DNA of 64,000 nucleotides from positions 395,828 to 459,827 of the forward strand of contig CBDEUK010000001.1 in assembly GCA_965243205.1 (NCBI GenBank). The letters are read 5' to 3'. A program made the translations under genes and the position numbers. This document shows positions 3,018-52,335 of the stretch, piece by piece; the stretch's first letter is position 1; each line of letters starts with the position of its first letter. The stretch is from Gammaproteobacteria bacterium (GTDB lineage: Bacteria; Pseudomonadota; Gammaproteobacteria; Eutrophobiales; Eutrophobiaceae). The notes beneath the pieces were generated by a model. That model saw nothing but the letters and a program-made list of their open reading frames with translations. It was not told the DNA's origin and did no database searches.

Positions 3018-3051
3018 AAAACCCATAATCATTCATGATTATGGGTTTTTT
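3018..3051 (+). terminator. intrinsic terminator after phaB2 (probably bidirectional)
   Basis: Inverted repeat AAAACCCATAATCAT-tc-ATGATTATGGGTTTT running into a T tract. Confidence 0.85.
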
Positions 3052-3078
3052 ATTTGTAATAACATTAAACTTGATAAC

Positions 3079-3516: not shown

Positions 3517-3534
3517 ATTAAGTTTAGACAATAA

Positions 3535-4125
3535 ATGAAAAATTTTTTCATAATCGCTTTAATCCTTCTAGCATTTTGGCAAATAGAACAATCTAGAGTT
3601 ACTTCTCTTGGACCAGGGGTTAAAGCACCAGAAGTCCCCAAACAAGATTCCATTAAGAACGCAAAGCCATTTAACTTTGAAGGCTATCAAATTACACCGT
3701 TAGCCGATTTTTCCTTAGAGGCAAAAGTATTATCGAAAGAAAATTATTCTTTAGGTAGAGAAGCCGATTTATCACCTGTTGATTTAGCACTCGGTTGGAA
3801 GAACATGTCAGATGAAGCTGTGATAGAAAAAATTTCTATACGACAATCAGGTCGCTGGTACCGTTGGAACTCTAAAGATTTTCCAATTCCTAGAAGAGAG
3901 ATAGAAACATCAAGTGCTAATATGCATATGGTTCCTTCAACAGATGCAATTCATTCAACCTTAAAAAAAGTTCGTAAAGGTGATTTGATAACGCTGCAAG
4001 GAAAACTTATAAGAGTTAATTCTAGTGACGGTTTTAGATGGCAAAGTTCGTTAACTCGTAACGATACTGGCGATGGTGCATGTGAATTGATTTGGGTAGA
4101 ACAACTATCGATACAAAATCAATAA
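3535..4125 (+). CDS. conserved exported or membrane-anchored hypothetical protein
   Basis: N-terminal hydrophobic segment. Conserved-looking motifs LSPVDLALGW, SANMHMVP and WQSSLTRNDTGDGACE. Confidence 0.7.
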   Translation: MKNFFIIALILLAFWQIEQSRVTSLGPGVKAPEVPKQDSIKNAKPFNFEGYQITPLADFSLEAKVLSKENYSLGREADLSPVDLALGWKNMSDEAVIEKISIRQSGRWYRWNSKDFPIPRREIETSSANMHMVPSTDAIHSTLKKVRKGDLITLQGKLIRVNSSDGFRWQSSLTRNDTGDGACELIWVEQLSIQNQ

Positions 4126-4138
4126 ATTCAATTTTTCT

Positions 4139-5200: not shown

Positions 5201-5212
5201 GGTAACAGTTCT

Positions 5213-6406
5213 TTAAAATTTTATTTCAATCACATTGTTATTAGTATTCGGACTAGTTTGGCGAGTAGATTTTCTTACTTTTTTTTTACTTACCGTCTTT
5301 TTTCGAGCCGTTGTTTTTTTCTCAGCTAAATTTGGGCTTTTGACTTTAGTTTTTGCTTTCTTCTTTTTTTTCCTAGCTGTAACAGAAGATGTATTAGTCA
5401 CCTTTTTGTTTAAAACCAGATCACGAAGTTCTTGAATTTCTTTTTCAAGTTTATTGACTTTCTGTTGTTCTTGTATATTTTTTTGTTCTGCTCTTTTCAG
5501 TTTTTGTTTTAGTTGATGTTGTTCTTTTGCTAATTCATCAAACTCATTTTTAGATGTCATGTTGTAGGTGCTATAAACTTCATTCATAAGTTCAGCACTG
5601 TCTTTTTTAAAGGCCATTAAGGCATTGACAACATTTCCATATAACAGTGAATACTCTTCACCAAGAACATATTCGCCGTAAGCTTCTTCGTTACAATCAA
5701 CCCATAAATCATAGGCAGCTCTTAATGATTCAATTTTTTCTTTGTTCTGAGCTAAAACAATCAGTTTATCTTTTAATAAATCTAAACCACTCGAGGCAAC
5801 TTGTGCCATTGCATCGTTATATTGTTTATTAGTTTCCTGAAATCGTTTAAATGATAAAACAGTGTGTTGAATTTTTTCCTGTAATTCTCTATTTAGGCCA
5901 AGACCAGGCATCGAAAGATATTTTTCAATATAGTCTTGAATCTCAGAATCACTAACACTTTCATCCAATATTTTTTCAAAACCAGGAATAAAGTTAACTG
6001 ACGACTTCAATGCTTCTTGATTAATCTTCCATTCAGAAAGCAAACCATCTTGAAAATAATTTGACTGCTCGTTATATGCTTGCTTCATCACTTCAATTTG
6101 TTGTTCAAGCATATTCATCCAATTTTTTTTGGTTTTCTTTTGAGAAGAAAGTAACTCTAATAAAGTTGATAACTGTTCTCCAAGGAAATAAAAAGACTTG
6201 CCTTGATTCATGACTTTATTAAAGACTTCGAATTGATCCATAGGCATAGAAACATCATTGGATTTCCACCAATAATTCATCGCCTGTTCCCATGGGTTTT
6301 GCGGTTTACTTTGACCAGAAATGAAGCTGTTTACTGATTCAATGTATTGTTTTTGTAGATCTGACCAATTCATTGAATTCCAATCTTGATTAAAAAATTT
6401 ATTCAT
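5213..6406 (-). CDS. phaE: class III PHA synthase subunit PhaE with a Lys/Arg-rich tail
   Basis: PGLGLNRELQ and YDLWVDCNEEAY..YS..YG..VNA motifs. Immediately upstream of phaC. Confidence 0.88.
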   Translation of the reverse strand: MNKFFNQDWNSMNWSDLQKQYIESVNSFISGQSKPQNPWEQAMNYWWKSNDVSMPMDQFEVFNKVMNQGKSFYFLGEQLSTLLELLSSQKKTKKNWMNMLEQQIEVMKQAYNEQSNYFQDGLLSEWKINQEALKSSVNFIPGFEKILDESVSDSEIQDYIEKYLSMPGLGLNRELQEKIQHTVLSFKRFQETNKQYNDAMAQVASSGLDLLKDKLIVLAQNKEKIESLRAAYDLWVDCNEEAYGEYVLGEEYSLLYGNVVNALMAFKKDSAELMNEVYSTYNMTSKNEFDELAKEQHQLKQKLKRAEQKNIQEQQKVNKLEKEIQELRDLVLNKKVTNTSSVTARKKKKKAKTKVKSPNLAEKKTTARKKTVSKKKVRKSTRQTSPNTNNNVIEIKF

Positions 6407-6523
6407 GTTGCCAATGCTTTATATTTTTTTAATTGTATTTAAATCCCTTGTATAACAATAGTCTGAATATTCAAAGATACCAAACTATTCAGATTAATCG
6501 AAAATAACTAATCTTACTTACTG

Positions 6524-6946
6524 TTAACTGGCTTTAGATTTTGCTTTGGTCTTAGCTTTTGAAACTTTACGTTTAGTCACTGGTTTCTTTGGTTCTTCTG
6601 GAATCACAGAATCAAATTCAGTCATTTTAGGTAATTCATTACTGAACCAATTTGTTACTTCATCTTGTGAAGAACTAATGACTGCACTTGCTTGTTCTGC
6701 AATCTTAATCACTTTATCTTGTACTTCGCTAGCAAACTGAGCTTCGGCACTAATAAATTCATTATAGTCTTTAATATTACTGACTAATTTGAATTGCGCT
6801 AAACCGCTCTCAAAACTGATATTGGCAAGGTTCATCTGAATAGTGGCCAATTCATTTAATGTGGTTGTATTAATATCAGTCAGCTTTTGGATTGCTTCGT
6901 AGGAAGCCTTACTGGCGTTGGTGATTTCTTCAAAGGTTGTATTCAT
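6524..6946 (-). CDS. phaP: phasin (PHA granule-associated protein) with a basic tail
   Basis: Small Ala/Gln/Glu-rich amphipathic helical protein upstream of phaEC, preceded by a PhaR-like operator. Confidence 0.75.
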   Translation of the reverse strand: MNTTFEEITNASKASYEAIQKLTDINTTTLNELATIQMNLANISFESGLAQFKLVSNIKDYNEFISAEAQFASEVQDKVIKIAEQASAVISSSQDEVTNWFSNELPKMTEFDSVIPEEPKKPVTKRKVSKAKTKAKSKAS

Positions 6947-7009
6947 GATGGGTATCTCCCAGATTTATAGCCGACAACCAACATCCGGCTATGAAAGTTA
7001 TATAATCAA

Positions 7010-7068
7010 TATTGTGCACTGCAATACTTATTGCAATGCACAATAGTCTAGTTCAACGTCAATGTCAA
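7010..7068 (-). promoter_or_regulatory. sigma70 promoter of phaP overlapped by a probable PhaR operator
   Basis: Minus strand TTGACA (7068-7063), 17 nt, TATTGT (7045-7040). A 17-bp inverted repeat at 7010-7026/7029-7045 has one mismatch, and each arm contains TGC-N3-GCA. Confidence 0.75.
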
Positions 7069-7093
7069 CTATTCATGAATACAGGAAGGTAAA

Positions 7094-7642
7094 TTAGAAA
7101 TGAGGTTTTTCTGGTAAATCTTGATATCGTTTCATTGAATCAACGATTTCTTGTTTCGCAGCATCCGCCTCACGCCAACCATCGACTTTTACCCATTTTT
7201 CAGGTTCTAAATCTTTATAATGTTCAAAGAAATGAGTAATTTTATCTAATAAGGCTGGCTGTAAATCACGAAAACTGTTCACATTGCGGTTAAATTTAGA
7301 CACCTTATCGATAGGCACAGCTAGAACCTTTCCATCATCGCCTGCTTCATCAGTCATATCTAAAATACCAATGGGTCTACAGCGCATAACGGCACCAGGA
7401 ATGATAGGCATAGGGGTTGCGATTAGTACATCCACAGGATCGCCATCCAATGCTAATGTGTGAGGGACATAACCATAGTTACATGGATATACCATAGAGG
7501 TATTCAGATACCGATCAACGAACATCGCTCCAGTGTCTTTATCTAATTCGTATTTTACTGGATCGCCATTGATGGCTATTTCAATGATCACATTGATCTC
7601 TTCTGGCGGATTTTTGCCAGGTCCTACTCGGTCTAAATTCAT
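7094..7642 (-). CDS. ppa: inorganic pyrophosphatase (family I)
   Basis: KYELDK, YPCNYG, DGDPVDV, FFEHYKDLE. Confidence 0.96.
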   Translation of the reverse strand: MNLDRVGPGKNPPEEINVIIEIAINGDPVKYELDKDTGAMFVDRYLNTSMVYPCNYGYVPHTLALDGDPVDVLIATPMPIIPGAVMRCRPIGILDMTDEAGDDGKVLAVPIDKVSKFNRNVNSFRDLQPALLDKITHFFEHYKDLEPEKWVKVDGWREADAAKQEIVDSMKRYQDLPEKPHF

Positions 7643-7671
7643 TAGAGCTCCTAATTAGTTAGTATTTACTA

Positions 7672-9612
7672 TTATTTATTCGCTCGATTCTCAATGAGTT
7701 CATCTACCACAGTAGGATCAGCTAGAGTACTGGTATCACCTAAGTTCTCCAATTCATTAGCCGCAACTTTTCTGAGAATTCGACGCATAATTTTGCCAGA
7801 GCGGGTCTTCGGTAAACCAGGAGCCCATTGAATGATATCCGGACTGGCTATGGGTCCAATCTCTTTACGGACATGACTAACCAATTCTTTCTTTAATTCA
7901 TCTGATGGATCGGTACCGGCCATTAACGTGACATACGCATAGATACCCTGCCCTTTGACATCATGAGGATAGCCCACGACTGCGGCTTCCGCGACAGTGT
8001 CATGCAAGACTAATGCACTTTCAACCTCTGCAGTCCCCATACGGTGACCGGAAACATTAATAACATCGTCTATTCGACCTGTGATCCAATAATACCCATC
8101 TTTGTCTCTTCTAGCACCATCTCCTGAAAAATATTTTCCAGGAAACATTTTGAAATACGTATCAATGAAACGTTCATGATCGCCAAATACGGTACGCATC
8201 TGGCCTGGCCAAGGACGTTTGATACATAAAGCACCTTCAGCTTCTCCTTCAAGTTCATTACCTTTATCGTCCACCAAACAAGGTTCAACACCAAAAAATG
8301 GTAACGTAGCTGATCCAGGTTTTAGTGCAGTCGCTCCAGGCAAAGGCGTAATTAAATGACCACCTGTTTCTGTTTGCCACCAAGTATCAACTATCGGACA
8401 TCTGCCATCGCCTACGACATTGTAATACCACTCCCAAGCTTCAGGGTTAATGGGCTCACCTACCGATCCAAGAATGCGTAAGCTACTGCGATCATGCTTT
8501 GCTACAAATTCATCACCTTGTCCCATTAACATGCGTATTGCAGTCGGTGCAGTGTAAAATGAATTCACCTTATGTTTTTCAACTATCTGCCAGAAACGGC
8601 CGACATCAGGATAATTTGGTACGCCTTCAAACATTAAACTAATCGCGCCGTTTGCTAATGGCCCATAAACAATATAGGAATGCCCAGTAACCCAACCTAC
8701 ATCAGCGGTACACCAATAGATCTCACCTTCCTGATAATCAAAAACATATTTATGTGTCATTGCTGCATAAAGCAGATATCCACCTGTAGTATGCAAAACA
8801 CCTTTGGGCTTGCCCGTTGAACCTGAGGTATACAAAATAAACAATGGATCTTCTGCATCCATTTCTTCAGGCTCACAATCAGTAGAAGCGTTATCAACTA
8901 ATTCGTGATACCAGACATCTCTATCACCGTTCCAATCAACATCATCTCCAGTTCTTTGAACAACGATACATGTATGGACATTAGGACAACCGCTTAAACC
9001 CTTATCGGCATTGGCTTTAAGAGGAATATGTTTTTTACCACGTAAACTATAATCGCTGGTGATAACAACCTGACAATCAGAGTCATTAATGCGGTCACGT
9101 AAAGCATCAGGAGAAAAACCTCCAAACACAATAGAATGAACTGCACCAATTCTGGTACACGCTAACATCGCAACTGAGGCTTCAGGAATCATTGGCATGT
9201 ATAAACAGACTCTATCCCCTTTTTTTACCCCACGAGATTTTAAACCATTAGCAAAGCGACAAACCTGTTCATGAAGCTCTTTGTAAGTAATTGTTTTATC
9301 TTCTTCAGGATCATCTCCTTCCCAAATGATGGCTGTTTGATCACCACGAGTATCTAGATGTCGATCCAAACAATTGTATGAAACATTTAGCTTGCCACCT
9401 TTAAACCAATTAATATCGACATTATCTTTGCCAAATTCCCAATCCTGTACTTGGTCCCAAGTTTTAAACCAAGAAATAAATTCATTAGCCTGTTGTGCCC
9501 AGAAATTATCTGAATCATTAATCGATTGCTCATACATTGATTTATATTGTTCAGCATTTATATGAGCAGTATTTGAAATAGATGTAGGTACTTTATAAGT
9601 CTTATCTGACAT
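7672..9612 (-). CDS. acs: acetyl-CoA synthetase (AMP-forming)
   Basis: [34 protein letters not shown]. Confidence 0.97.
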
Positions 9613-16094: not shown

Positions 16095-17882
16095 TTGGAC
16101 ACAATTTCTTCTCTCTCGCTGATTGTCGTATTGGGCATCACCTGCCAGTGGTTGGCATGGTGGGCTCGCTTACCTGCTATTTTATTCTTACTGATCACAG
16201 GCATGCTCATAGGGCCAGTAACGGGTGTTTTAAATCCTGATCAATTATTTGGTGATCTTTTATTTCCCATGGTGTCTCTCTCCGTAGCCGTCATCTTATT
16301 TGAAGGCAGTTTGACCTTAAAATTTGATGAGATTAGAGGCTTGGGTTACGTGGTGCGTAACATGATCAGTATCGGCACACTGATTACCTGGATCGGAACC
16401 GCATTAGTCACTCATGCCTTATTGGATTTTCCATATGAGTTATCGTTTTTGTTTGGCGCAGTTGTTATCGTAACTGGTCCTACTGTGATTGTTCCAATTC
16501 TAAGAAGTGTTAGGCCCAATGCAAAAATCGCTAATATCCTGCGTTGGGAAGGTATTACCATCGATCCCATTGGCGCTTTAATGGCGGTCTTGGTTTTTGA
16601 CTTCATTATTTCCAAACAAAACGAATACGTATTTAGCAATATTCTGATCGTGTTTGGAACACTCATCTTTGTCGGCACTGTCGTTGGCATAATCGCAGCT
16701 CTCGCACTTAACTATGTTCTAAAACGTCATTTAATACCTGAGTATTTACGCAATGTATTTGCCTTAGCGTTGGTTTTTGCAGCATATGCTGTTTCCGATC
16801 TATTTGTTCATGAGTCAGGCTTATTAGCCGTCACCGTTATGGGTATTATTCTGGCCAACATGAAAGAAACGGATATCGAAGACATACTTGATTTTAAAGA
16901 GACATTGAGTGTTCTACTCATATCTGGATTATTTATTATTTTGGCTGCACGTATTGAGTTTGAACAATTCCAACAACTGGGTTTTCGATCGTTTGGAATT
17001 TTATTAGCGCTTATGTTCATCATTCGCCCGCTTAAAGTATGGATCTCGTCTATTGGCTCGGACTTAACCGTAGCTGAAAAAATGATGATTTCTTGGGTTG
17101 GGCCAAGAGGTATTGTAGCAGCAGCCATCGCTGCATTATTCGCTATTCGACTTGAAGAAGCGGGGTTTCCTGAAGCATCTTTATTAGTACCACTGACATT
17201 TCTTATCATTATTGGCACTGTCGTAATCCAAAGCTTAACCTCAAAACAAATTGCTAGCTGGCTAGGTGTACGTGAACCTGCTGCAACAGGAGTGTTGATC
17301 ATTGGCGCGGGTAAAGTCGCAAGAGTGATTGGCAAAGCTATTCAAGAACAAGGATTTAAAGTCGTCATGACTGACAGTAACTGGGAAAATACCAGTCTTG
17401 CACGTATGGAAGGCTTAATGACGTATTTTGGTAACCCTATATCTGAACATGCTGACCGTAATCTAGATTTAGTTGGCGTAGGTTCAATGTTGGGGCTATC
17501 TGGGCGTGCCAACCTTGATACATTAGCAGCTCTTCGCTTTCGTAACGAATTTGGTTCGAATAGCGTTTATGAAGTAAAAACTAGCCGTGAAGATATTGTT
17601 GGTGATAAACATATTGTTTCGACACGTCATCGTGGCTTCCAGTTATTTTCTAATGATATTACCTATGGAACCTTAGCTAACTGGATAGGCAATGGTGCTG
17701 AAATTAAAAAGAATCAATTAAGTAATACCTTTGATTACTCAAATTTTCAAGATAAATATAAAAACAATTCCATTCAATTATTCGCAATTGATCCTAAAGG
17801 AAAATTACATTTTTACGTTGCTGAAAAAGAACTTAAACCTGAAGCCGGTTGGAGTATCATCAGTTTGATTCAACCCGCATAA
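16095..17882 (+). CDS. CPA1 (NhaP-type) cation:proton antiporter with a C-terminal TrkA-N-like domain
   Basis: About 12 TM helices. VTGPTVI, WEGITIDPIG, GPRGIVAAA, then GVLIIGAG Rossmann-like domain. Confidence 0.88.
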   Translation: MDTISSLSLIVVLGITCQWLAWWARLPAILFLLITGMLIGPVTGVLNPDQLFGDLLFPMVSLSVAVILFEGSLTLKFDEIRGLGYVVRNMISIGTLITWIGTALVTHALLDFPYELSFLFGAVVIVTGPTVIVPILRSVRPNAKIANILRWEGITIDPIGALMAVLVFDFIISKQNEYVFSNILIVFGTLIFVGTVVGIIAALALNYVLKRHLIPEYLRNVFALALVFAAYAVSDLFVHESGLLAVTVMGIILANMKETDIEDILDFKETLSVLLISGLFIILAARIEFEQFQQLGFRSFGILLALMFIIRPLKVWISSIGSDLTVAEKMMISWVGPRGIVAAAIAALFAIRLEEAGFPEASLLVPLTFLIIIGTVVIQSLTSKQIASWLGVREPAATGVLIIGAGKVARVIGKAIQEQGFKVVMTDSNWENTSLARMEGLMTYFGNPISEHADRNLDLVGVGSMLGLSGRANLDTLAALRFRNEFGSNSVYEVKTSREDIVGDKHIVSTRHRGFQLFSNDITYGTLANWIGNGAEIKKNQLSNTFDYSNFQDKYKNNSIQLFAIDPKGKLHFYVAEKELKPEAGWSIISLIQPA

Positions 17883-17906
17883 CAAAGTGATCACTTGCAA
17901 TAAATA

Positions 17907-17928
17907 AACTGTGATCTAGTTCCCATTT
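17907..17928. promoter_or_regulatory. CRP-type binding site
   Basis: AACTGTGATCTAGTTCCCATTT matches 19 of 22 positions of the consensus AAATGTGATCTAGATCACATTT. Confidence 0.65.
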
Positions 17929-17987
17929 CAAACAAGTCACAACTAGAAATTCATATTCGCTTAATAGATCCTATCTAAAATTATAGG

Positions 17988-18080
17988 TGTAGCTTTCCAT
18001 GTGTAGTGAAGTAGTGAAACAGCATGGGGTTACTCTTAATCCCTCCTCCCCAAGAGTAGCCCCAAGCTTTTAACTTTTTT
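17988..18080 (+). ncRNA. candidate small RNA 1 with a CCCUCCUCCCC-loop hairpin
   Basis: -10-like TAAAAT at 17976-17981. 13-bp stem 18025-18037/18052-18064 with one G-U pair. Loop AATCCCTCCTCCCC, then T tracts. Boundaries approximate. Confidence 0.5.
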
Positions 18081-18120
18081 ATGTCTAACATTAATAGTGA
18101 AAAAATAATTGTTGACTTTA

Positions 18121-18168
18121 TGTGATTTAAATCACGCCTTTACGGCTCATTTTGTGAGAATAATCACA
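18121..18168. promoter_or_regulatory. two CRP-type sites
   Basis: TGTGA-TTTAAA-TCACG (18121-18136) and the perfect core TGTGA-GAATAA-TCACA (18153-18168). The second is at class II spacing from TAGACT (18190-18195). Confidence 0.68.
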
Positions 18169-18201
18169 GATATCCTGATCATGAATTACTAGACTTATTA
18201 C

Positions 18202-18280
18202 CGAAGACATCAATACCTCTCTATGCAAATATGCAGATCGGGATTGGCCACCCCCCCCCAGGCTGATTCCGATTTTTTTT
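18202..18280 (+). ncRNA. candidate small RNA 2 ending in a C9-loop terminator hairpin
   Basis: 13-bp stem 18237-18249/18261-18273 with three G-U pairs, loop A-C9-A, followed by a T tract to 18280. Boundaries approximate. Confidence 0.52.
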
Positions 18281-18415
18281 ATCAAGCAATCGTTCAATTA
18301 AACCGCTATCAGGATATAATGTATTACATAATAATTGATTGTTAATACATTATTATTTATCAAAATGATGTGTAATAGACTACTATTAGTATTTTAATTT
18401 ATTTGTTTCTCGATA

Positions 18416-20323
18416 ATGAACAATAGCAACTACAACAATGCATTAGCCATTGATACTGAATTACTTTGGTATCGAATAGAAGGGGTACTTGGCCAAGGTG
18501 CGTTTGGTATTACCTATTTGGCGCATGATATTTATTTGGATAGAAAAGTTGCGATTAAAGAATACATGCCTGGTGCGTTTTCAATGCGCATGGATGATCT
18601 AAATATTGAACCAATTTCCAGTGATCTCACTAATGATTATAAATCTGGTTTAGAACGTTTTTTAAGTGAAGCCAGAACTCTTACTAAATTCAAACATCCA
18701 AATCTCGTTCAAGTTTTCAATATATTTGAAGAAAACAATACCGCCTACATGGTAATGAGTTATGAACAAGGCCGTAGCTTAAAACAAATTTTAAAAACCA
18801 GAAAATCATTATCAGAAACAGAACTGATGAATTTATTAGTGCCGCTAATGGATGGCCTCGAAATGATGCATGAAAAAGGTTTTATTCATCGTGATATCAA
18901 ACCAGGAAATATCTTTATCCGTGAAGATAACACGCCTGTACTACTGGATTTTGGATCGGCTAGACAAACTCATTATTTCCTTAGTGATGATGATGAAGAG
19001 TCACAAGTAAAAACGCTAACAAATTTTGTTTCTCCTGGTTATACACCGATTGAACAATACAGTGGCAAGAGTGATCGCCAAGGTCCATGGACAGATATTT
19101 ATGCTTTAGGCGCTACATTATATAAATGTATTACTGGCAGAATGCCAATTGAAGCAGTGGAACGTAGTGAAAGCATTGTTCACGTCAGTAAAGATGAATA
19201 TGTGAGCCTTTATGAAATTGCCCAAGGTAAATATTCTAAATCATTTCTAAATGCAATTGATCATTCCCTCGAATTCAAAGCACAAAACAGACCTCAAACC
19301 ATCAAAGAATGGCGAAGCGAATTTGGTATCTCGATTGAAGAGTTCGATACTATTGAGTTACCAGAAGAAAATACAGATGAATTACAAAGCCCTCTGGATA
19401 TTAATACAGAAAATTTAGAAACATTAGAAGCAACCACTTATCAAAAAACCATACCTGAAAATCATGAAGCTACTACTGTTGCTGCTGAAAGCCGTTTCGT
19501 TAAGAAGAAAAATTCATCAATAAAATCATTTATAACTTATGCTACCGCAGCTACGTTATTAGTAAGTGTATTTGCTATCACTTATTATCAAATTAATAAA
19601 CCTAATGATGAGATTAGCGAGACTGTTACTCAACGATTAAACACTATTCCAGATCCAATCATAATAGAAGAACGGACTCCACCAGTTACTGAGCCAAATA
19701 CATTAACAGAAATAACCATTCAAACTACTCCAATCGGAATTGATGAAGAAATAGAAAAAACTAACACCTTAAAAGAAAGAATCGCCAAACAAAAATCTGA
19801 TAAAAAAGAAGAAATCGAGATATTACTTCGTTTGGCCGCTAAAGATATTCAAGCTAAACGATACACTTTACCTGAAAATAATAATGCTTATGAAAAATAT
19901 CAAAAAGTTTTGGCAATAGATGTATCTAATGAAGATGCTAAAAATGGTATCTTATTTTTAACGGATAAGTTTATGATTGCAGCTTATAGAGAAATTGAAA
20001 AAAATAATTTCGATGGTGCAAAGGAAAATATAGCCAAGGCTGATACCTTATCTCCAAACTTGGATGCCGTGAAACGAGCTAAAGAACATCTACAAAGGAA
20101 ACAGCGCCAATATTACGCTGCCCAACGTGCCGCTCAACGACCACCTGAATCTCAAGTTAGTAATGTTCCTTCAAACGAACCAACCGTGAGTTCAACAAAT
20201 ACAGCAAACGATGGTGTTAAAGTCGTCGACTTATCCAGAGATGTTCCTAGCAAGCAAAAAGATTCTATTCCTGATAACGAAATCGACCGTACTATTAAGT
20301 CTATTCAAACTTTGTTTGACTAA
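18416..20323 (+). CDS. membrane-anchored Hanks-type Ser/Thr protein kinase
   Basis: LGQGAFGITY, VAIKEY, HRDIKPGN, DFG, PIEQ, DIYALG. One TM helix, then a TPR-like NAYEKYQKVLAID.SNEDAKNG segment. Confidence 0.92.
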   Translation: MNNSNYNNALAIDTELLWYRIEGVLGQGAFGITYLAHDIYLDRKVAIKEYMPGAFSMRMDDLNIEPISSDLTNDYKSGLERFLSEARTLTKFKHPNLVQVFNIFEENNTAYMVMSYEQGRSLKQILKTRKSLSETELMNLLVPLMDGLEMMHEKGFIHRDIKPGNIFIREDNTPVLLDFGSARQTHYFLSDDDEESQVKTLTNFVSPGYTPIEQYSGKSDRQGPWTDIYALGATLYKCITGRMPIEAVERSESIVHVSKDEYVSLYEIAQGKYSKSFLNAIDHSLEFKAQNRPQTIKEWRSEFGISIEEFDTIELPEENTDELQSPLDINTENLETLEATTYQKTIPENHEATTVAAESRFVKKKNSSIKSFITYATAATLLVSVFAITYYQINKPNDEISETVTQRLNTIPDPIIIEERTPPVTEPNTLTEITIQTTPIGIDEEIEKTNTLKERIAKQKSDKKEEIEILLRLAAKDIQAKRYTLPENNNAYEKYQKVLAIDVSNEDAKNGILFLTDKFMIAAYREIEKNNFDGAKENIAKADTLSPNLDAVKRAKEHLQRKQRQYYAAQRAAQRPPESQVSNVPSNEPTVSSTNTANDGVKVVDLSRDVPSKQKDSIPDNEIDRTIKSIQTLFD

Positions 20324-20325: not shown

Positions 20326-21537
20326 CTATTTACAAGATAACGGTAAATATTTGGTTGGGATATTCTGACCATAACAGTCCCATTTAACAGCGCCTTCTTC
20401 GACGTAAGGCTGAATAATAATAAATTTTTCTTCACCCTCCGTTGTGTTACCTACATACACGCCTATAATCCCGTTTTCATATATTCCAATATTGTATTTA
20501 TTTTCTGGACCTATGATCTTATCTGTTTCACGCCCAAGATCTTTCATACTCACAGGCCAGTTCTGGTAAATAGTAGCGTAGTTTTCCACTTCAGGCTTAA
20601 ATGACTCTGCTTCATAAACGTAACCTGTATACTGGACTCGTAATGTATAATCTTGATAAGCAGGAATGGCTATCGCAGCAAGGATACCAATCAATGCAAC
20701 TATCATTATCAAGGAAGTAAAACCACCAGCACCTAACCCAAACCTAGGTATAAACATCGCGAGTAACCATGCAAATTTATTCCGTGAAGGAAGTTTAATC
20801 GCCTTACCTTGCTTCATAGCCAAAGCGTTAACTAAGCGCTTAACTAACCAAGGGTAGTCACTGGTTAACTCATTAAATGACATCCAAAAACCCGAAGTTT
20901 CTTTCACTTGCTGAGTATAAGCTTTGGTATTTAACGTTTTCCAACGAGTATCACCTGCCGCTATAGTTGCTATAGCCGCAGTAATATCTTCCTCAATATC
21001 ACAGCAAGCTACACCATATCTATCACAGGTATATTCTTCGGCTCGACAAAGCGCACTGCCTAATAGTGGTAAAAATTTAGCTGGTGCTAGAAACCACCCC
21101 CATAGCAAATGTTTTCTATTAATATGTCCTAACTCATGTCCTATATAAAAATCAACCGCACCTGGCTTATCTTCCAATGCATCGACAACATCTGTAAATA
21201 AGACAATATAATTTCGCCCAAGAAATCTGGTTGCTAAAGCGTTAAAGAAATCTGTGCGTAATAAATAGGCTTCAGGTACAGTCTCTTGTTCAATCGTATT
21301 ACACGCATTAATGAGTTTTTTGTATAAATCAGGAAATTGATCTTGTGTGATTTTGACCCCTGTGCCCTTCACATATGAAATAAATTGAGAATGTGCAAAC
21401 AAACCCAATATATAAAATATAAGCAAGAAAATAAGCAAGGTACCAAAACTAACCGCTAATAGAGCAAGCCATATAATTGAAGAAATGACTAATGCGATAA
21501 AAAATAATTTTTTCTCGTTTTTATATACAAGTTCCAA
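20326..21537 (-). CDS. M48-family zinc metalloprotease fused to a type IVa pilin-like domain
   Basis: FNALA, [22 protein letters not shown]. C-terminal [20 protein letters not shown] helix and WDC...YLPLSCK disulfide end. Confidence 0.82.
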   Translation of the reverse strand: [403 protein letters not shown]

Positions 21538-21614: not shown

Positions 21615-24600
21615 TTAGTTCGACCACTCTCGCCAGCCTCTCAGTAATGGAAAATATAAACCAAGGCGAATTTCTCGATTAGATTCGCTTGAATTCATGT
21701 GTTTCATAATATGCGCGTAGCGGTTTAATTGGCTTTCATAACGAATTTTTTCTTGTTCGAGAAAATCATCAGTATCGGCTTGTTCATGTCGACTGGTTTT
21801 ATAATCGATTATCCAACGTATGCCATCCTTATCAATGAAAGTCCTATCTATTTTAATATTCACAATTGAATTATTATATAAACCCGTTAGAGCATATTCA
21901 TTTTGTGCATCAATATGTTGTTCACTCATTATCCATTTTCCTTTGGGATCAGAAACGACATTCATCAATGCTTCTTGAACTCGCTGACTGGTCCAGTTTA
22001 AATCCTTTTCTTCTACGCCCAATAATTTAAGATAATTTTGAAAATGTTTGCTGTATTTTTCTATTTTCTCTTTATTCCACTCCGCTAACCCTTGTATAGC
22101 GATTTCCTGTAGATAACGATGAACTGTTGTTCCTATATGTTTAATATTGTCACTCGCCCATTCGTATTCGATGACAGGTTCTAATTGTTGTATTTCAGTA
22201 CTGTTAGTATTTATTAGTATTTCATCTTGATATTCTCTAGTAACACAATCATTACTTATTCGACGCAAACGCTGATCAATCATCAAAATCTCTTCAGTCG
22301 CATTAATTTTTTTATCCGATTGTAGTTGTTGATCAAATTTAGATTCAGCATATTGCCATAGATGTTGCAATAAACTATTACTGTTGGCTTGACAATAAAT
22401 ATCACCCTCTTTGTTTTCTTTAGCATTTGCATGGCCATAAAGATGTAAAGAATTTTTAGCTCTAGTCGTTGCTACATATAATAATCTGGCATCTTCATAA
22501 TGATTTTTCGTTTTCTCAATCTGCTTTAAATATTGATAAACAGCATTTTGAGTACTACCAGATTGTTTTATTGGAGCCATGATCATTCTCTGCTCCGATA
22601 AATCAGAAACCATTGTCCATTTCATTAATTCATCTTTTGAAATATTTGTTCTCTTTCCTAAGCCTGGTAACAATACATGATCAAATTCTAATCCTTTGGA
22701 TTTATGCATACTCATAATATGCACTTGTATAGCATCATCGGAATCCGAGCCAGCGTATAATTTATTGACGGCATTGTTTAGCTCAGAAATATTTGATAAT
22801 TCACCGCCTTTGTCATAATCATCTAATAAATAAAAGAATCGTTGTACATCTTGCAAATGATGCTCATTTTCTAAAGTAGCAGGCCCACCCAACTTCAGCC
22901 AGAGCGACTCTATAATTTCATGTATCGATCGACGTTGTTTCTGAGTTAAATGTTCTCTAAAAATTCTAATAAATCGTTCTAAACGAACTTGTTCACCATT
23001 TTGCAACCGAGATATATTTGATTGTTCCTGTAAAACATTCCAAACTGTATTATTTTTTGAGTAACTAAATAATTGCGTCATTGAATGTAAACTTAAACCA
23101 CACCAAGGTGCTCTCAAGATAGAAAACCACGCAACTTTATCTGCAAAATGCGAATAGGCTTGCGTTAGTGCCATGAGGTCTAAAATATGACTTTGATTGG
23201 CTAAAGGTTCGATATCGACCGCTTTGAAAGCAATGTTTTCTGATTTTAAGATCGGTATGATTTGACGTAAATGCGAACGACTTTGTACTAAAATAGCAAT
23301 GCTTTCATCTTTGTTTGTTTGAATAATCTGTTTTATTGTTTCAACAATGCTTGTTGCTTCTTCAGTATCAGAACGATTTAACATTGCATGAAATTTAATA
23401 TCCGTCTCATCGCCACTTATATTTTTTGCTACTGATGGATTAAAACTTACTGCACTCTCACTGACATTATCATGTTTAGGCATGATTTTTGTGAAATGAT
23501 AATTTATCCAATTCACAATCGACTGACTAGAACGAAAATTTAATTCTAAACGCAATGGCCTTAGTTGAATTTGATTAATTCTTTGTTCTTGCCATGTTTG
23601 AATAAAAATACCAACTTCAGCTTCACGAAATCGATAAATTGATTGCATGGGATCACCAACTAAAAATACTGAATTTGTTTCTTCTGTCGACCAACCAGCA
23701 ATTAAACGATTAAGTAATACATATTGGCTAACAGAAATATCTTGAAACTCATCAACTAATAAATGGCTTATTTTATGATCGATATACAAAGCCAAATCAG
23801 TCGGTTCATCGTCGTCACCTAAAGCGGTTATGGCAGCTTGAGAAACGGCGGTAAAGTCGAGTTTATTCTGCGCCGAAAAAACTAAACGTAATTCTGCTTC
23901 TGCCAAACGTAATAAATTAAGCATAGCGCCAATGATTTCCCAATCATTGGATTCATATTCTGCTGAAGGAAGATAATCTAAATCACTTAATAAAGCTTGA
24001 ACTTCAGAATGAGCTTGCAAGGCTTGTAATAAGTTTTGCATTCTTTCTTTCATTGACTTACGTAATTCAGCTTCTGATTTTTTTTCAGATGGTGCGGGAA
24101 AACCTATCTTTTTTGTTACTTGAACTCGCCAAGCTGCTTTATCGGTTAATAATAACGTTCTTAACGCTTGCCATTTATTTAAATCCTGCCAATTTGAACT
24201 AGGTAAAGATCGCATATCATGACATTGACTAATGATATTATCTGGATCTGCTTGTAATAATTGTTCTGCGGCATATGACAATAACTCACATAACTCGTTA
24301 CTTAACTCTTGTGGAAAACTTTGCTCTAACTTCGTTAAATGCGACTCGATGATATGTTTTAATGTGGCTTCCATATCATTTCGATCATGCTCTGACACCA
24401 CATAACGAATCCATTGATCTCGCTTATACAACATTTGGATCAATAGATTTTTTAATCGCGGAATATCATTGTCTAAATAAATTAATAAATTAGCTAAATC
24501 ATTCGACCAAGAACTTTCTTTTTCTAATTGCTTAATGACATTATTAACTGCGAGCTCAAATAAATATATAGGATCATCAACCGTCTCCGCTCTTGAACCT

Positions 24601-25001
24601 AATTGTGCTAGCACAGGCATTTGATAACATAAGTTTGCACATAATGAATCAATCGTCTGAATTCTTAGCCTGTTGGGGTTTTCTTCCAAATTCCATTCAA
24701 ACTGTTTATCATGTTCTAATACTTTACTTGCTAACTCTTGAGTTAATAATTCATGTTCTGTTACTGCAGAAATTTTTTGCCGAGCCTTATCTAATGCCGA
24801 TAACACACGAGTTTGCATTTCCGAAGCAGCTTTTTTTGTAAACGTAATTGCAATAATTTCTTCGGGAGATTCAACTAAAGACAGTAATTTTAAATATCGT
24901 TGAATTAATAATTCAGTCTTACCTGAACCAGCAGGAGCTTGAACAATAAATGATTGTTCAGGATTTATAGCGTCTTGACGTTGTTGAAAATCAGCGATCA
25001 T
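21615..25001 (-). CDS. addA: UvrD-family helicase with a C-terminal PD-(D/E)xK nuclease (AddA-like)
   Basis: APAGSGKT, ITFTKKAA, VDEFQD, GDPMQSIYRFR, HKSKGLEF, YVATTRAK, IDR...IIDYKT. Confidence 0.85.
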   Translation of the reverse strand: MIADFQQRQDAINPEQSFIVQAPAGSGKTELLIQRYLKLLSLVESPEEIIAITFTKKAASEMQTRVLSALDKARQKISAVTEHELLTQELASKVLEHDKQFEWNLEENPNRLRIQTIDSLCANLCYQMPVLAQLGSRAETVDDPIYLFELAVNNVIKQLEKESSWSNDLANLLIYLDNDIPRLKNLLIQMLYKRDQWIRYVVSEHDRNDMEATLKHIIESHLTKLEQSFPQELSNELCELLSYAAEQLLQADPDNIISQCHDMRSLPSSNWQDLNKWQALRTLLLTDKAAWRVQVTKKIGFPAPSEKKSEAELRKSMKERMQNLLQALQAHSEVQALLSDLDYLPSAEYESNDWEIIGAMLNLLRLAEAELRLVFSAQNKLDFTAVSQAAITALGDDDEPTDLALYIDHKISHLLVDEFQDISVSQYVLLNRLIAGWSTEETNSVFLVGDPMQSIYRFREAEVGIFIQTWQEQRINQIQLRPLRLELNFRSSQSIVNWINYHFTKIMPKHDNVSESAVSFNPSVAKNISGDETDIKFHAMLNRSDTEEATSIVETIKQIIQTNKDESIAILVQSRSHLRQIIPILKSENIAFKAVDIEPLANQSHILDLMALTQAYSHFADKVAWFSILRAPWCGLSLHSMTQLFSYSKNNTVWNVLQEQSNISRLQNGEQVRLERFIRIFREHLTQKQRRSIHEIIESLWLKLGGPATLENEHHLQDVQRFFYLLDDYDKGGELSNISELNNAVNKLYAGSDSDDAIQVHIMSMHKSKGLEFDHVLLPGLGKRTNISKDELMKWTMVSDLSEQRMIMAPIKQSGSTQNAVYQYLKQIEKTKNHYEDARLLYVATTRAKNSLHLYGHANAKENKEGDIYCQANSNSLLQHLWQYAESKFDQQLQSDKKINATEEILMIDQRLRRISNDCVTREYQDEILINTNSTEIQQLEPVIEYEWASDNIKHIGTTVHRYLQEIAIQGLAEWNKEKIEKYSKHFQNYLKLLGVEEKDLNWTSQRVQEALMNVVSDPKGKWIMSEQHIDAQNEYALTGLYNNSIVNIKIDRTFIDKDGIRWIIDYKTSRHEQADTDDFLEQEKIRYESQLNRYAHIMKHMNSSESNREIRLGLYFPLLRGWREWSN

Positions 25002-27634
25002 TCTTCTTCCAAATAAGCATCGATGCGTTCATTGATCCTACATAAAGTTGGAAATTCGCAATAACGGCAAGCACCTGGCATTGGATCAACAATCACTTTG
25101 CCTGCTTGAAATTCTAAAGCTAAACTCGCTAAATTAGATTGCCAATCTTTTAGACATTGCTGCCATTGTTCATGCGGTAGAGCTTTTATTTTTGGAATAA
25201 GAACATCTGTATCCGATATTCCAAGATAACGATAATCACCAATTTTTAATTTAGCAAATGCTAATCCAGCAACTTCTCCTTCTGTCGTAATAGCATAGAG
25301 TGGTAATTGAGGGTCTTCTGGCCGTTCGCCAAACCATGAATTAGGAGATATTTCTCCTGTTTTATAATCAATGATGATTAAACGACCATCTTTTAATTGA
25401 TCGAGCCTATCGATACGCATATGTAAAGTAATTCCATGGAATGAAATATGATGGCCTTTTTCTACTGCATTAACAGTAAATACTTCTCGTTGCCTTTCTA
25501 TCTCTATCCAATTTTTTAATACTCTTGAAAGACGCTCCCGTTCGATTTCTATAAAGCGTTCTCCTAAGGAATCAGAAAAAAATTGTTTTTGTTCATCAAG
25601 GCTATTATTTACAGATTCTTTAATTCTCCGATCTAACACATTTTCAGATAAATATTTTAATTGGTCTGAATGTTTAATTTTTTCCCAGAAAAGTTGTAAC
25701 ACCCGATGAATTAGAATACCTCTATCGATTGCATTTAATCCTATTTCAACATGATTCAAACTATCGGCATACAAACGATGTCTCGCAAAGGCTTTAAAAG
25801 AGCATGCTGCCTGATCTTTAAATAAAGCTGCTGTACCGTTGATTGATTGATCAGCTTTTATTTCAGGAGCTACGTCCGTTTCCATATATTCTATTTTACG
25901 TTTTGCATATAACTTTTCTGCAAAACCTATTCTTAAGTCAATATTATTTTCCTTAAACGGAATATTTTTTAATAAAGGGCTGGGTCTTAACTCATTATCA
26001 TTTTCATTAGTTGAATAACTGAATAGAATATTTTTGGTTGAAGCAATTAAAGATTCTGTTAGCTGTTGGGCATACTTTAAACTAATATTCGCTGTACAAC
26101 CTGGCATTTCTAATTCACGTTGCAATTCATAAGGTAAAAATGGATTAGGTATTGTATTTTGCGGCCAAGCATTGTCATGTGCATCAGCAAACCAGCAATA
26201 ATCAAATTGCATTCCACTGGCACCTTCAATACCCATAATAAAAATATTTTTATCTTCAGTTTTCGGTTGAAACTGTATTTGACCACATAGATGATTTAAT
26301 AGATTCAAAGCTGAATAAAAATCATATTTAGCAGATATAATATTTAGTGAGGCCAATTTTTCTAAACAGTCTTGCCAAGCTTCCCAAGTCTGATAATCAT
26401 CAGAATTTAATTTTTCATCACCTGGCCATAAAAAAAACTTTAAACATTCTGAAAAAATAGAAGGCCATTCTTTTAACGATTTACTGTTTAGGTTTTCCTG
26501 TTTAAAGGAAAAATACTGTTGTAATTTATCAATCATAATCGGACATTGATTTTCTTCGTCCAATCTTTCATGAATATGCATAATCGTCTCAAATCGTATC
26601 GAAGGTTGACCAAGTTTTTTTAACTCTGCATCTAATATGTGACGTTGATTTAATTCACTCTCATAACCCGTAATAAAAACTGAACGTAGCACTAAACTTA
26701 AACGATCTAAATCTATTCTAAATACGTTTAGAGATAAAATAGTCAAAGCAATATTTATCATTGAATAATCCGTTAATGCTTTGCCTAATGAAATGGTAAA
26801 AGGAAATTGATTTTGCACAGAGTTATGCAAATATTGTTTTATAGATAACCGTTTGCTCAATTCAGTTTGAAAAAGTGATTTTTTTGAATTCAAATTTGGA
26901 ACAATGATTCCTATTTTTGCATTCGGCTGTGTGTTTGAACAATCAATGAGCCAATCCGCTATAGCATCCACTTCTTTCGTTTCATCTTCGAAAGCTATTT
27001 TTTCCGTTAAATTATTTTGTTTCGAAGGGCTTAAACAATCAATTTGTATATTTTGATTTCTTAAATACGTTAGAAACGACTGCTGTCTAGGCATTAGATC
27101 ATCAAATGCATAAAATATGTATTTGTTAAATTTAGTTTGTGATGGATTAAAATTATGTTCTATGAACGTTATGACATTCGCTTGATCCAACCAATTTTTT
27201 GCCTTACATCTTAACTGATACGATTCCATCCAAAGTTTAAACGCAAACACATCTTGATTAATAAAATACTCGTCTGGAATCGATTCTATGTTCCAATCTT
27301 TACATAAACGATATGCTGCTTGCACTTGGCGAGCTGTTGCATCAATTTGCAACAACTGTTTTGCATAATTTGATGACTCAATCACCTTAGACCATAAAAG
27401 CAGAGACTGATGCCTTGTCAATAATATCGGCGGAGAATCATGCTCAAGACATTGCTCTTGCCATAATTGATTTAACCAAATATTCCAAGAAAGAACATTT
27501 GCTGAAGGCCATGATTGCTTACCCGTTTCTATTTGCTGCGCTGCATACTCAGAATGTAAATGGTGAGCTAGACCTTGTGTGGGGGTTATAATGATATTTC
27601 CCTGCTCGATGCGTGCTAGTATTTCCTTATTCAT
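24998..27634 (-). CDS. addB: AddB-like inactive helicase / PD-(D/E)xK nuclease
   Basis: RIDRLD..IIDYKTG, QLPLYA. Fe-S staple cysteines (AACSF ... CRYCEFPTLCR). Overlaps the addA-like start by 4 nt. Confidence 0.8.
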   Translation of the reverse strand: MNKEILARIEQGNIIITPTQGLAHHLHSEYAAQQIETGKQSWPSANVLSWNIWLNQLWQEQCLEHDSPPILLTRHQSLLLWSKVIESSNYAKQLLQIDATARQVQAAYRLCKDWNIESIPDEYFINQDVFAFKLWMESYQLRCKAKNWLDQANVITFIEHNFNPSQTKFNKYIFYAFDDLMPRQQSFLTYLRNQNIQIDCLSPSKQNNLTEKIAFEDETKEVDAIADWLIDCSNTQPNAKIGIIVPNLNSKKSLFQTELSKRLSIKQYLHNSVQNQFPFTISLGKALTDYSMINIALTILSLNVFRIDLDRLSLVLRSVFITGYESELNQRHILDAELKKLGQPSIRFETIMHIHERLDEENQCPIMIDKLQQYFSFKQENLNSKSLKEWPSIFSECLKFFLWPGDEKLNSDDYQTWEAWQDCLEKLASLNIISAKYDFYSALNLLNHLCGQIQFQPKTEDKNIFIMGIEGASGMQFDYCWFADAHDNAWPQNTIPNPFLPYELQRELEMPGCTANISLKYAQQLTESLIASTKNILFSYSTNENDNELRPSPLLKNIPFKENNIDLRIGFAEKLYAKRKIEYMETDVAPEIKADQSINGTAALFKDQAACSFKAFARHRLYADSLNHVEIGLNAIDRGILIHRVLQLFWEKIKHSDQLKYLSENVLDRRIKESVNNSLDEQKQFFSDSLGERFIEIERERLSRVLKNWIEIERQREVFTVNAVEKGHHISFHGITLHMRIDRLDQLKDGRLIIIDYKTGEISPNSWFGERPEDPQLPLYAITTEGEVAGLAFAKLKIGDYRYLGISDTDVLIPKIKALPHEQWQQCLKDWQSNLASLALEFQAGKVIVDPMPGACRYCEFPTLCRINERIDAYLEEE

Positions 27635-27788: not shown

Positions 27789-28778
27789 ATGCGAAGAACA
27801 AACAAACCGGCCGAATGTTTAACCGTGGAGCCTACCCAACAAATAGCAAGTTTGAATGAAGATATTCTGAATAATTTTCTGCATCAACCTCGCTCCTTAT
27901 CCCCTAAATACTTTTATGATGATCGAGGTTCAGATTTATTCACTCAGATATGTGATACTCCAGAATATTATCCCACACGCACTGAAGATTCATTACTTAA
28001 TCAATACTGCATCGATATTATCACGAAATCTCAACCTAACCAGATTATTGAATTAGGCAGTGGTAATTCACAAAAAACCCGCCATCTTTTTAATGCGTGC
28101 GAGACATTAGGCACTTATTGTCGTTATTTACCATTCGATGTATGCGAATCCATTTTAGTTGAAAGTAGCCAAGAATTGCATGAAGAATATCCTTGGCTAG
28201 ACATACAACCTTTGCAGGGTGATTTTTACGCTGGCCTAGGCAATCTCCCCCAAAATCACAATAAAAATTTATATATTTTTTTAGGTGGCAGTATTGGTAA
28301 CTTTACTCCAGAAAAAGCTGGGCAGTTCTTAAAAGAATTATATCAAACCATGAATGATGGCGATTTTTTCCTACTTGGTGCTGATAGAAAAAAAGAACCT
28401 TCCGTATTAAATGCTGCTTATAATGATGCTCAAGGGATTACTGCAGAATTTAATTTAAATGTACTAAACGTCATTAATCATGAATTAGATGCAAACTTTA
28501 ACATTAATGAATTTGAACACAGTGCTCATTTTAATGACATGCTAGATAGAATTGAAATGCATTTAATTTCTAAAAAAGATCAAACTGTCGACCTTAATCG
28601 CTTGAATGAACAAGTTGAAATTTCCCAAGGAGAAAAAATATTAACGGAAATAAGCTGTAAATATAGTTTTGATAAATTAGAAACTTTATTACGTAATGCC
28701 GGTTTTAATATAGAACAACACTATCAACCCATTAACAATTATTTCTCATTGGTCTTAGCTAAAAAGAATATTACTTAA
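27789..28778 (+). CDS. egtD: L-histidine N-alpha-methyltransferase
   Basis: [54 protein letters not shown]. Confidence 0.88.
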
Positions 28779-29182
28779 TGTCGAATATAAAAATTAAAAA
28801 AACCGAACAAGAGTGGCGTGAGCAACTTTCAGACGCTGAGTTTAATATTTGCCGAATGAAAGGTACTGAACGTGCATTTACTGGTGAATATTATAATTGT
28901 AAAAATGATGGTATTTATACTTGCACTTGTTGTGGTGCTGAATTATTTGATTCCATCGCTAAATATGATTCTGGTTCAGGTTGGCCAAGTTTTTTTCAAC
29001 CGATACAAGATGAAAACATTATAGAAAATATTGACAAAAGTCATGGTATGACTCGTACAGAAATTGTATGCAGTGATTGCGACTCACATTTAGGTCACGT
29101 CTTTTCTGATGGTCCTAACCCAACAGGCTTACGTTATTGCGTAAATTCTGCTTCATTAAAACTCAAACCGAAAAGTGATTAA
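28778..29182 (+). CDS. msrB: peptide-methionine (R)-sulfoxide reductase
   Basis: [33 protein letters not shown]. Confidence 0.96.
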
Positions 29183-52330: not shown

Positions 52331-52335
52331 AACGA

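Follow-up and report, generated by a model that had tools for sequence, protein, structure and literature searches.

Which genes, if any, occupy the 533-bp gap that separates the stop codon of a CPA2-type antiporter gene (Na_H_Exchanger and TrkA_N; 16095-17882, + strand, stop at 17882) from the start codon of the next long open reading frame (ORF) on its 3' side, a Ser/Thr kinase gene that starts at 18416 on the + strand? The gap is part of what we call the window, that is, the whole 64-kb stretch of DNA analysed here, and it holds two modules. A preliminary description had read these modules as a tandem pair of small RNA (sRNA) genes activated by CRP, whose C-rich loops would be directed at Shine-Dalgarno (SD) sequences, and all the details it listed were found in their places by direct reading of the sequence. 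The explanation that we favour, and hold to be rather probable, is that the gap contains two paralogous sRNA genes, independently transcribed from the + strand, which belong to an undescribed family of uncultured gammaproteobacteria.

As judged from its sequence, module 2 is a typical member of the family, and sRNA 2 is intact in the window. Its proximal CRP-type site, TGTGAGAATAATCACA (18153-18168, centre 18160.5, + strand), has a perfect core and is centred 29.5 bp before the start of the -10 hexamer TAGACT (18190-18195, + strand). The site would thus stand at about -41.5, the class II spacing assigned to it earlier. A distal site with one mismatch, TGTGATTTAAATCACG (18121-18136, + strand), which the preliminary description did not contain, lies 32 bp further upstream, at about -73.5; both values assume that transcription starts 7 nt after the hexamer. 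The sequence at the -35 position, CAGATA (18167-18172), is poor, as is expected for an activator-dependent promoter. The predicted sRNA 2 (about 79 nt, 18202-18280, + strand) has a 5' box, GAAGACAUCA (18203-18212), followed by a CU-rich stretch, AUACCUCUCU, a small hairpin, and the terminator. The latter, hairpin 2 (18236-18280, + strand), has a 14-bp stem that pairs 18236-18249 with 18261-18274 and includes three G-U pairs, an 11-nt loop of the form A-C9-A (18250-18260), and a tract of T8 in the DNA, or U8 in the RNA (18273-18280). In the predicted fold, hairpin 2 exposes a poly-C loop at the top of an intrinsic terminator; it was not listed as an inverted repeat in the DNA repeat search.

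Is this arrangement found elsewhere? One scan of genome contigs anchored on the antiporter protein yielded four loci, L001 to L004. Three of them come from metagenome-assembled genomes (MAGs) of Gammaproteobacteria and carry modules behind the antiporter gene: two in L001 (antiporter 80% identical), two in L003 (74%), and one in L002 (64%). The fourth, L004, from a Nitrospinaceae MAG of another phylum with an antiporter of 53% identity, has none. With the two modules of the window (M1 and M2), there are seven copies in all. The covariance model built from these seven copies, model R1, scores them between 70.6 and 86.1 bits, the highest value being that of sRNA 2, and the next best score in 119,416 bases is 21 bits with default filters; no third copy was found in the window with model R1 and the filters switched off. 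The two modules are paralogues of one family, in agreement with the tandem pair of sRNA genes proposed at the outset. The gene order around the gap is shared with L001 (fabA/fabB-like genes, antiporter, kinase, AddA-like helicase). The ORF downstream of the modules is the kinase in the window and L001, a 111-aa ORF in L003, and a 128-aa ORF in L002, the latter two of unknown family. The antiporter is the only conserved neighbour across the loci, a linkage that is partly built in by the antiporter-anchored search.

The comparison with L001 delineates module 2 within a diverged gap. Between the -10 hexamer and the end of the U tract, the two sequences agree in 82 of 97 columns (about 85%), with all six bases of TAGACT unchanged, as compared with 33 of 73 columns before and 88 of 162 columns after this segment (about 45-54%); the boundaries of arms and loop are one base off in this comparison, which does not materially change the totals. 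Two differences within the module 2 stem, G-U to A-U and C-G to U-G, keep the pairing in the + strand RNA only. The preliminary description had named a lack of conservation of the loops and CRP boxes as grounds for giving up the proposal and had called for a covariance analysis of homologous gaps. Loops and CRP-type sites are both conserved in the three related genomes, as are the -10 element and the hairpin pairing, with compensatory changes in the stem.

The terminator stem covaries. In the alignment fitted to the model, the stem comprises 14 pairs with 91.8% of cells paired, and 11 of the 14 pairs have compensatory changes. None of 500 shuffles reached the observed values, and sliding the pairing partner by 1-3 columns reduced the paired fraction to 27.6-55.1%. 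RNAalifold, applied to a plain MAFFT alignment and therefore independent of the model, found compensatory changes in nine of 14 pairs. The slid-register control and the wholly different stems around an identical loop are stronger arguments than the shuffle control. The terminator loops of the family are C-rich and 11-18 nt long, and a U tract follows. In the four copies that we call type 1 (window M1, L001_M1, L003_M1, and L002), the 11-nt loop core CCCUCCUCCCC is identical in every copy, around stems that differ. The C-rich stretch is predicted to be unpaired with a probability of 0.95-1.00 in all seven copies.

Which strand would be transcribed? RNA folds of the + strand beat shuffled sequences for both modules (z -2.54 for module 1 and -3.32 for module 2), whereas those of the - strand do not (z -1.36 and -0.03). 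The four G-U pairs counted earlier across the two stems are present, one in hairpin 1 and three in hairpin 2. The folding z-scores point to the + strand alone, and the G-U pairs and the pairing-preserving substitutions work only there, which upholds the reading of the hairpins as structures of + strand RNA.

Could the modules be a chance resemblance or a functionless repeat element? We consider this very improbable. Hairpins and AT-rich hexamers resembling -10 elements are common in the intergenic DNA of a genome with 36-38% G+C, and the sigma-70 scan of the region returned promoter-like sites in no greater number than in shuffles. The motifs, however, are concentrated in the gap. All three matches in the window to TGTGA-N6-TCACA with at most one mismatch lie inside it (2.67 expected per 64 kb), and both matches to CCYCCYCCC in the 64-kb window are the two loops (0.25 expected). 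When the window is taken together with the four fetched loci (119 kb), nine of ten sites with at most one mismatch are located in the homologous gaps. The conserved geometry, the covariation of the stem, and the clear footprint against L001 also speak against chance, and the window has only two copies in 64 kb, so the module is no dispersed repeat. The sigma-70 consensus scan of 17500-18700 detected no promoter on the + strand, under rules that exclude promoters with a weak -35 element, and the simple terminator scan of the same interval, which allows only loops of 3-8 nt, flagged neither hairpin. In view of these rules, we did not count the results against the finding.

A coding function for the gap was also considered. 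Two ORFs are called mechanically in the gap, and the frames of both are broken by indels relative to L001. The reading of the C-run as part of a small poly-proline protein was rejected on the grounds that the frames are not conserved, that L003_M2 has no ATG, GTG, or TTG from the predicted start to the terminator, and that Pfam gave no match for the small ORFs within and next to the gap.

The -10 hexamer has the general form TAnAcT, occurring as TAGACT in three copies (window M2, L001_M2, and L003_M2), TAAACT in L003_M1 and L002, TACACT in L001_M1, and TAAAAT in window M1. A CRP-type site with at most two mismatches is centred 29.5 (±1) bp before the hexamer in five of the seven modules; at this position, L001_M1 retains only the TCACA half, and window M1 lacks the site. 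The centre of a second site is found 61.5 (±1) bp upstream of the hexamer in five of seven modules and 58.5 bp upstream in window M1; L002 has none at this place. The alignment of full modules has invariant columns at the distal TGTG and at the proximal TCACA, window M1 being accommodated through a 16-column gap. The layout of a class II site with an additional site some three helical turns upstream is found in four modules, with spacings of 29.5 and 61.5 bp in window M2, L003_M1, and L003_M2, and of 29.5 and 60.5 bp in L001_M2. Such tandem arrangements of CRP sites activate transcription synergistically; a literature search on this promoter layout returned nothing useful. The promoter region of L001_M1 holds, in addition, an inverted copy of the 5' box (GAAAACATCA and TGATGTCTTC, L001 9833-9857), which occupies the place of the proximal CRP-type site in the other modules.

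Downstream of the hexamer, the predicted RNAs share a common plan. The 5' box begins about 7 nt past the hexamer, as CGAAGACAUCA in three copies and as UGAAGACAUCA, CAAGACAUCA, and CGAAGUCAUCA in one copy each. It is followed by a CU-rich stretch (ACCUCUCU, ACUUCUCU, ACCUCCU, or AACCUCCC), an AU-rich linker, and the terminator hairpin. In L002 and L003_M1, the 5' box is paired with a downstream UGAUGCUU, forming a first, 5' hairpin with a loop of UUAACCUCCC or AUUU; the loop of the L002 5' hairpin is itself CU-rich. A conserved promoter, an unpaired seed, and a covarying terminator with a U tail are generic features of genes for Hfq-type sRNAs. Module 2 and its orthologues have all of them, and module 1 of the window has them in part, its -10 element being ambiguous and its U tract interrupted.

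Module 1 of the window requires separate consideration. Its distal site, TGTGATCTAGTTCCCA (17910-17925, centre 17917.5, + strand), deviates from the core at one position and stands 58.5 bp before the candidate -10 hexamer TAAAAT (17976-17981, + strand), 3 bp off the family value of 61.5; distal sites at the matching position occur in five of the six other modules. A weak second site with two mismatches, TTTCAAACAAGTCACA (17926-17941, + strand), immediately adjoins the first and is not spaced 32 bp from it. It is likely to be a displaced remnant of the proximal site of the family, as its TCACA is aligned by MAFFT with the invariant proximal TCACA of the other six modules, only by way of the 16-column gap. 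The assignment of TAAAAT is uncertain, TAGATC (17965-17970) being an alternative, ancestral hexamer. The site and the hexamer reported in the preliminary description are thus present, but its class I placement at about -71 is uncertain, as the proximal geometry is lost and the -10 element is ambiguous. The predicted sRNA 1 (about 93 nt, 17988-18080, + strand) scores 78.4 bits with model R1, has a fold energy of -26.7 kcal/mol, and contains a tandem duplication of GTAGTGAA (18003-18018). Hairpin 1 (18025-18064, + strand) has a 13-bp stem, 18025-18037 paired with 18052-18064, with one G-U pair. Its 14-nt loop, AATCCCTCCTCCCC (18038-18051), contains CCCUCCUCCCC and is predicted to be unpaired with a probability of 1.00. 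In the pairwise comparison with L001, the distal site and the loop alone stand out. Module 1 therefore presents itself, in its base sequence, as a drifted and diverged sibling of module 2 that keeps the loop, the hairpin, and the distal site and has an uncertain promoter. Its RNA may be weakly or differently expressed, or may be made by read-through from the antiporter gene.

This last consideration leads to another explanation, in which the hairpins, above all hairpin 1, would end the antiporter transcript, and a small RNA would be cut from the antiporter mRNA or its 3' untranslated region (UTR), without a promoter of its own. The modules always lie behind the antiporter gene on the same strand, no other terminator-like site is present from the stop codon at 17882 to hairpin 1, and the promoter of module 1 in the window is degenerate. 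There is also a precedent in Rhodobacter, where CcsR RNAs arise by processing of a 3' UTR (PMC8034643). The linkage to the antiporter, however, is partly a product of the anchored search, and in six of seven modules a conserved -10 element and correctly spaced CRP-type sites are found between the stop codon and the hairpin. Module 2, moreover, sits behind the terminator of module 1 with a complete promoter, and plain terminators need no loops of 11-18 nt with an invariant 11-mer. We regard this explanation as unlikely; for module 1, it and independent transcription can both be true together.

Alternatively, the modules could act in cis, as a leader or attenuator. The downstream gene, in this case the kinase, would then be transcribed from a CRP-dependent promoter, and the terminator hairpin would act as a regulated attenuator with a factor bound to its C-rich loop. 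In each of the four genomes, the ORF that follows the modules is encoded on the + strand; between sRNA 2 and the kinase gene, which starts without an SD sequence, the sigma-70 scan detected no promoter on this strand. On the other hand, the downstream genes are unrelated to each other, namely the kinase in the window and L001 and ORFs of unknown family in L003 and L002, and the modules occur in tandem. The ensemble folds contain no alternative antiterminator pairing, with pairing probabilities of the stem near 1, and TATAAT (18315) or TAGACT (18376), both downstream of sRNA 2, could serve the kinase gene. Cis regulation appears improbable. A perfect 11-nt inverted repeat, ATAATGTATTA and TAATACATTAT, 16 nt apart, is located at 18316-18353 between sRNA 2 and the kinase start codon. 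It overlaps TATAAT at 18315, is not obviously conserved in L001 by pairwise alignment, and may serve the kinase gene as an operator or promoter element.

How would a pair of independently transcribed sRNA genes work? We propose that an activator of the CRP family would bind TGTGA-N6-TCACA at about -41.5 and -73.5; conservation and geometry of the sites are observed, and the binding and its effector are what we infer from them. The promoter, at which the activator would recruit RNA polymerase, has a conserved -10 element (TAnAcT) and a poor -35 element. Transcription would start a few bases before the 5' box GAAGACAUCA and would stop at the intrinsic terminator, where the hairpin and its covariation are observed, to give an RNA of about 80-95 nt with predicted ends. 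This RNA could expose up to three conserved single-stranded elements: the 5' box, the CU-rich stretch (ACCUCY), and the C-rich terminator loop, which in type 1 would be CCCUCCUCCCC and in type 2 a run of C. Both the C-rich and the CU-rich elements might pair with G-rich or SD sequences of mRNAs and thereby lower translation initiation, and the 5' box might add further target specificity. The blocking of ribosome-binding sites (RBS), which is probably the mode of action, is suggested by analogy with CyaR, cuckoo/CcsR, sX13, RepG, and LhrC.

Several observations weigh against this explanation or limit it. The sample is small and phylogenetically dependent, comprising seven copies in four genomes that were all found through the antiporter anchor. 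The shuffle control overstates the significance, as the seven sequences are related, and the alignment used (A3) was fitted to the structure of the model. The type-2 loops (window M2, L001_M2, and L003_M2) keep only their C-richness, as C9, C7UC, and CCACCUCCCCC. Module 1 of the window has an ambiguous -10 element, which the covariance-model alignment places at TAAAAT (17976) and MAFFT at TAGATC (17965). Relative to TAAAAT, the proximal site of this module has moved to -42.5, the U tract is broken up (TTTT AAC TTTTTT, ending at 18080), and the 5' box GAAGACAUCA is missing. The downstream genes all lie on the same strand, so a cis role is possible. The term "cAMP-responsive", used in the preliminary description, is derived from the TGTGA-N6-TCACA motif, which is common to other proteins of the CRP family. 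The same motif serves members with other effectors, such as Clp in Xanthomonas and Vfr in Pseudomonas. No crp, cya, or hfq gene was found in the window or the fetched loci.

The prospective targets add to these reservations. Of the 47 uncurated, mechanically called gene starts of the window, only 11 are preceded within 22 nt by a 4-nt SD core, and GGAGG is found at a single one, the start of a motA-like gene at 32105. This suggests that the genome uses SD sequences weakly. As there are few starts with a strong SD sequence, "RBS blocking" in general may not describe the real targets, which may be a small set of G-rich leaders and not ribosome sites in general. A duplex scan of the 47 window starts gave no trusted outlier and identified no target. 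The best duplexes with the C-rich loop within the window, at the motA-like gene (32105) and at acs (9612, start region GAGGGAAGGA), are anecdotal and serve as leads only. Complements of the 5' box in the loci occur only at scattered, non-start positions, the inverted copy in the promoter region of L001_M1 being one of them.

These facts also bear on the possibility that the conserved C-rich loop is the site of an RNA-binding protein, for titration or delivery, and not a seed for base pairing. The loop is kept at 11 of 11 nt in four copies, a stricter conservation than pairing with varied SD sequences would call for; strong SD sequences are rare among the genes of the window, and a small protein, CcaF1, is dedicated to binding the cuckoo RNAs (PMC8034643). 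No candidate protein, however, is linked to the locus, Pfam matches none of the small ORFs near the gap, and the loop sequences of type 2 vary. The characterised sRNAs with C-rich loops in the literature examined act by pairing (PMC8295292, PMC8862304, PMC3771888, PMC4132741). We consider protein binding quite improbable as the main role of the loop, and we retain base pairing by two independently transcribed sRNAs as the favoured explanation.

If the modules are transcribed, they would represent a new family of regulatory RNAs in uncultured gammaproteobacteria, in a genome of low G+C with class III polyhydroxyalkanoate (PHA) synthase genes. Their tandem activator sites, 5' seed, and terminator loop as a second seed form a separable and testable design. 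With its seven sequences, model R1 could serve as the starting point of an Rfam-style family, and it amends the annotation of a gap in which gene callers place nothing.

The window has other features beyond the gap. Within 1-9612, a complete class III PHA cluster, consisting of thiolase, reductase, PhaR-type regulator, PhaC, PhaE, and phasin genes, adjoins the acetyl-CoA synthetase gene. A 403-aa ORF (20326-21537, - strand) has an unusual fusion, with an N-terminal match to an M48 peptidase and a C-terminal match to a pilin domain. It is followed at 21615-27634 (- strand) by a pair of genes, an AddA-like gene (UvrD helicase and PD-(D/E)XK nuclease, 1128 aa), syntenic in L001, and an AddB-like gene (878 aa, PD-(D/E)XK), and at 27789-29182 by a gene for an EgtD-type histidine-specific methyltransferase directly followed by an MsrB (SelR) gene. 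Two huge ORFs fill 54758-64000 (- strand), one of 2161 aa and one of at least 938 aa that runs off the window, with about 30 Big_9/cadherin-like repeats and RTX motifs; the DNA of this region has 52-56% G+C as compared with about 36% in the rest of the window. Next to these ORFs are a gene for an outer-membrane efflux protein (53154-54689) and, at 48861-53121, three genes of the HlyD type, of which one carries a fused M50 peptidase domain. This arrangement resembles that of a type I secreted giant adhesin.

Do the predicted RNAs belong to a family already described? Rfam gave no match in the whole window at gathering thresholds. At E ≤ 10, only four chance-level matches, HOTAIR_1, MicF, P31, and Six3os1_3, were obtained in 17700-18500, and at E ≤ 1 the loci L001-L003 gave two chance snoRNA matches elsewhere and nothing relevant. 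The MicF match was rejected, with 19.8 bits against a gathering score of 79, and reflects a generic terminator with a 5' tail. Full-text literature searches found no paper describing this RNA, its loop motif, or its 5' box. The preliminary description had invoked cuckoo/CcsR, CyaR, and sX13, and membership in any of these is not borne out, as Rfam gave no match even at E ≤ 10 and the architecture of two to four hairpins typical of cuckoo RNAs is lacking. The modules probably form a new family, absent from Rfam 15, that would work like the sRNAs with C-rich anti-SD loops.

In the number of binding sites, the predicted RNAs can be compared with sRNAs of Xanthomonas and Listeria. The sRNA sX13 of Xanthomonas has three C-rich loops with 4C/5C motifs and acts without Hfq (PMC3771888), and LhrC of Listeria is a multicopy sRNA controlled by LisRK, whose CU-rich sites include a linear stretch and the terminator loop (PMC4132741). 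Several redundant, single-stranded C- or CU-rich sites are common to these sRNAs, to the UCCC-loop sRNAs of Firmicutes, and to the predicted RNAs; in the known sRNAs, they bind G-rich sequences near start codons. Unlike the modules, neither sX13 nor LhrC has CRP-type sites or the 5' box, and no Rfam match connects them with the gap. The predicted RNAs have one or two hairpins, in contrast to the three stem-loops of sX13.

CyaR (Rfam RF00112) has its C-rich loop in an internal hairpin and not in the terminator. This enterobacterial sRNA, also named RyeE, is similar in size to the predicted RNAs and likewise has a C-rich loop; it is CRP-activated, whereas here only CRP-type sites are seen, and its apical loop sequesters the SD sequence of ompX (PMC8862304). 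The two differ in that no match in sequence or structure to CyaR was obtained at E ≤ 10 in 17700-18500, and that CyaR is a single gene and the gap holds a sibling pair. The nearest formal match to the A-C9-A loop of sRNA 2 is RepG of Helicobacter pylori, in which the terminator hairpin has a C/U-rich loop that serves as the seed and binds a homopolymeric G-repeat within the leader of an mRNA (PMC8295292). RepG has an unrelated lineage and sequence and no CRP-type promoter, and the complementary 9-mer that would constitute a G-repeat target is absent from the 64-kb window.

The cuckoo/CcsR RNAs (RSs0680, ar14, NfeR) offer a further parallel. They consist of two to four adjacent hairpins per RNA with CCUCCUCCC in each loop, and among 2,680 genomes they were detected in alphaproteobacteria only (PMC4615179). 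Their loops have been proposed as anti-SD elements (PMC4615179; PMC8034643). The motif CCUCCUCCC is contained in the CCCUCCUCCCC loop of all four type-1 copies, in hairpin 1 at 18042-18050, and, as in the cuckoo RNAs, the stems vary freely around a fixed loop and tandem copies lie beside a conserved gene. Unlike the cuckoo RNAs, each predicted RNA has one hairpin of the motif type, which is the terminator, and the two hairpins of the window are about 170 nt apart with promoter elements of their own. The second, 5' hairpins of L002 and L003_M1 do not carry the motif in the loop, the type-2 loops lack CCUCCUCCC, and the loci are labelled Gammaproteobacteria. The promoters of cuckoo genes, furthermore, are of the RpoHI/HII or sigma-70 type, and a DUF1127 gene is often found next to them, adjoining the CIN1 subgroup, in contrast to the CRP-type sites and the antiporter and kinase neighbours found here.

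A more far-reaching reading, which we put forward as a doubtful one, is that the modules are the gammaproteobacterial counterpart of the cuckoo RNAs. The CCUCCUCCC anti-SD loop would have arisen, or been kept, in a second class of proteobacteria, in the terminator loop of a sibling pair of sRNAs wired to a carbon or energy signal of the CRP family. When the activator is on, the RNAs might selectively silence the few mRNAs with G-rich leaders, a selectivity that we infer because strong SD sequences are rare (11 of 47 starts), and the C9 loop of sRNA 2 could vary in length by slippage and thereby retune its targets, as a mirror image of the variable G-repeat target of RepG. The modules in any case extend the CCUCCUCCC loop beyond alphaproteobacteria, which bears on the question of whether such anti-SD loops are inherited or have evolved repeatedly.

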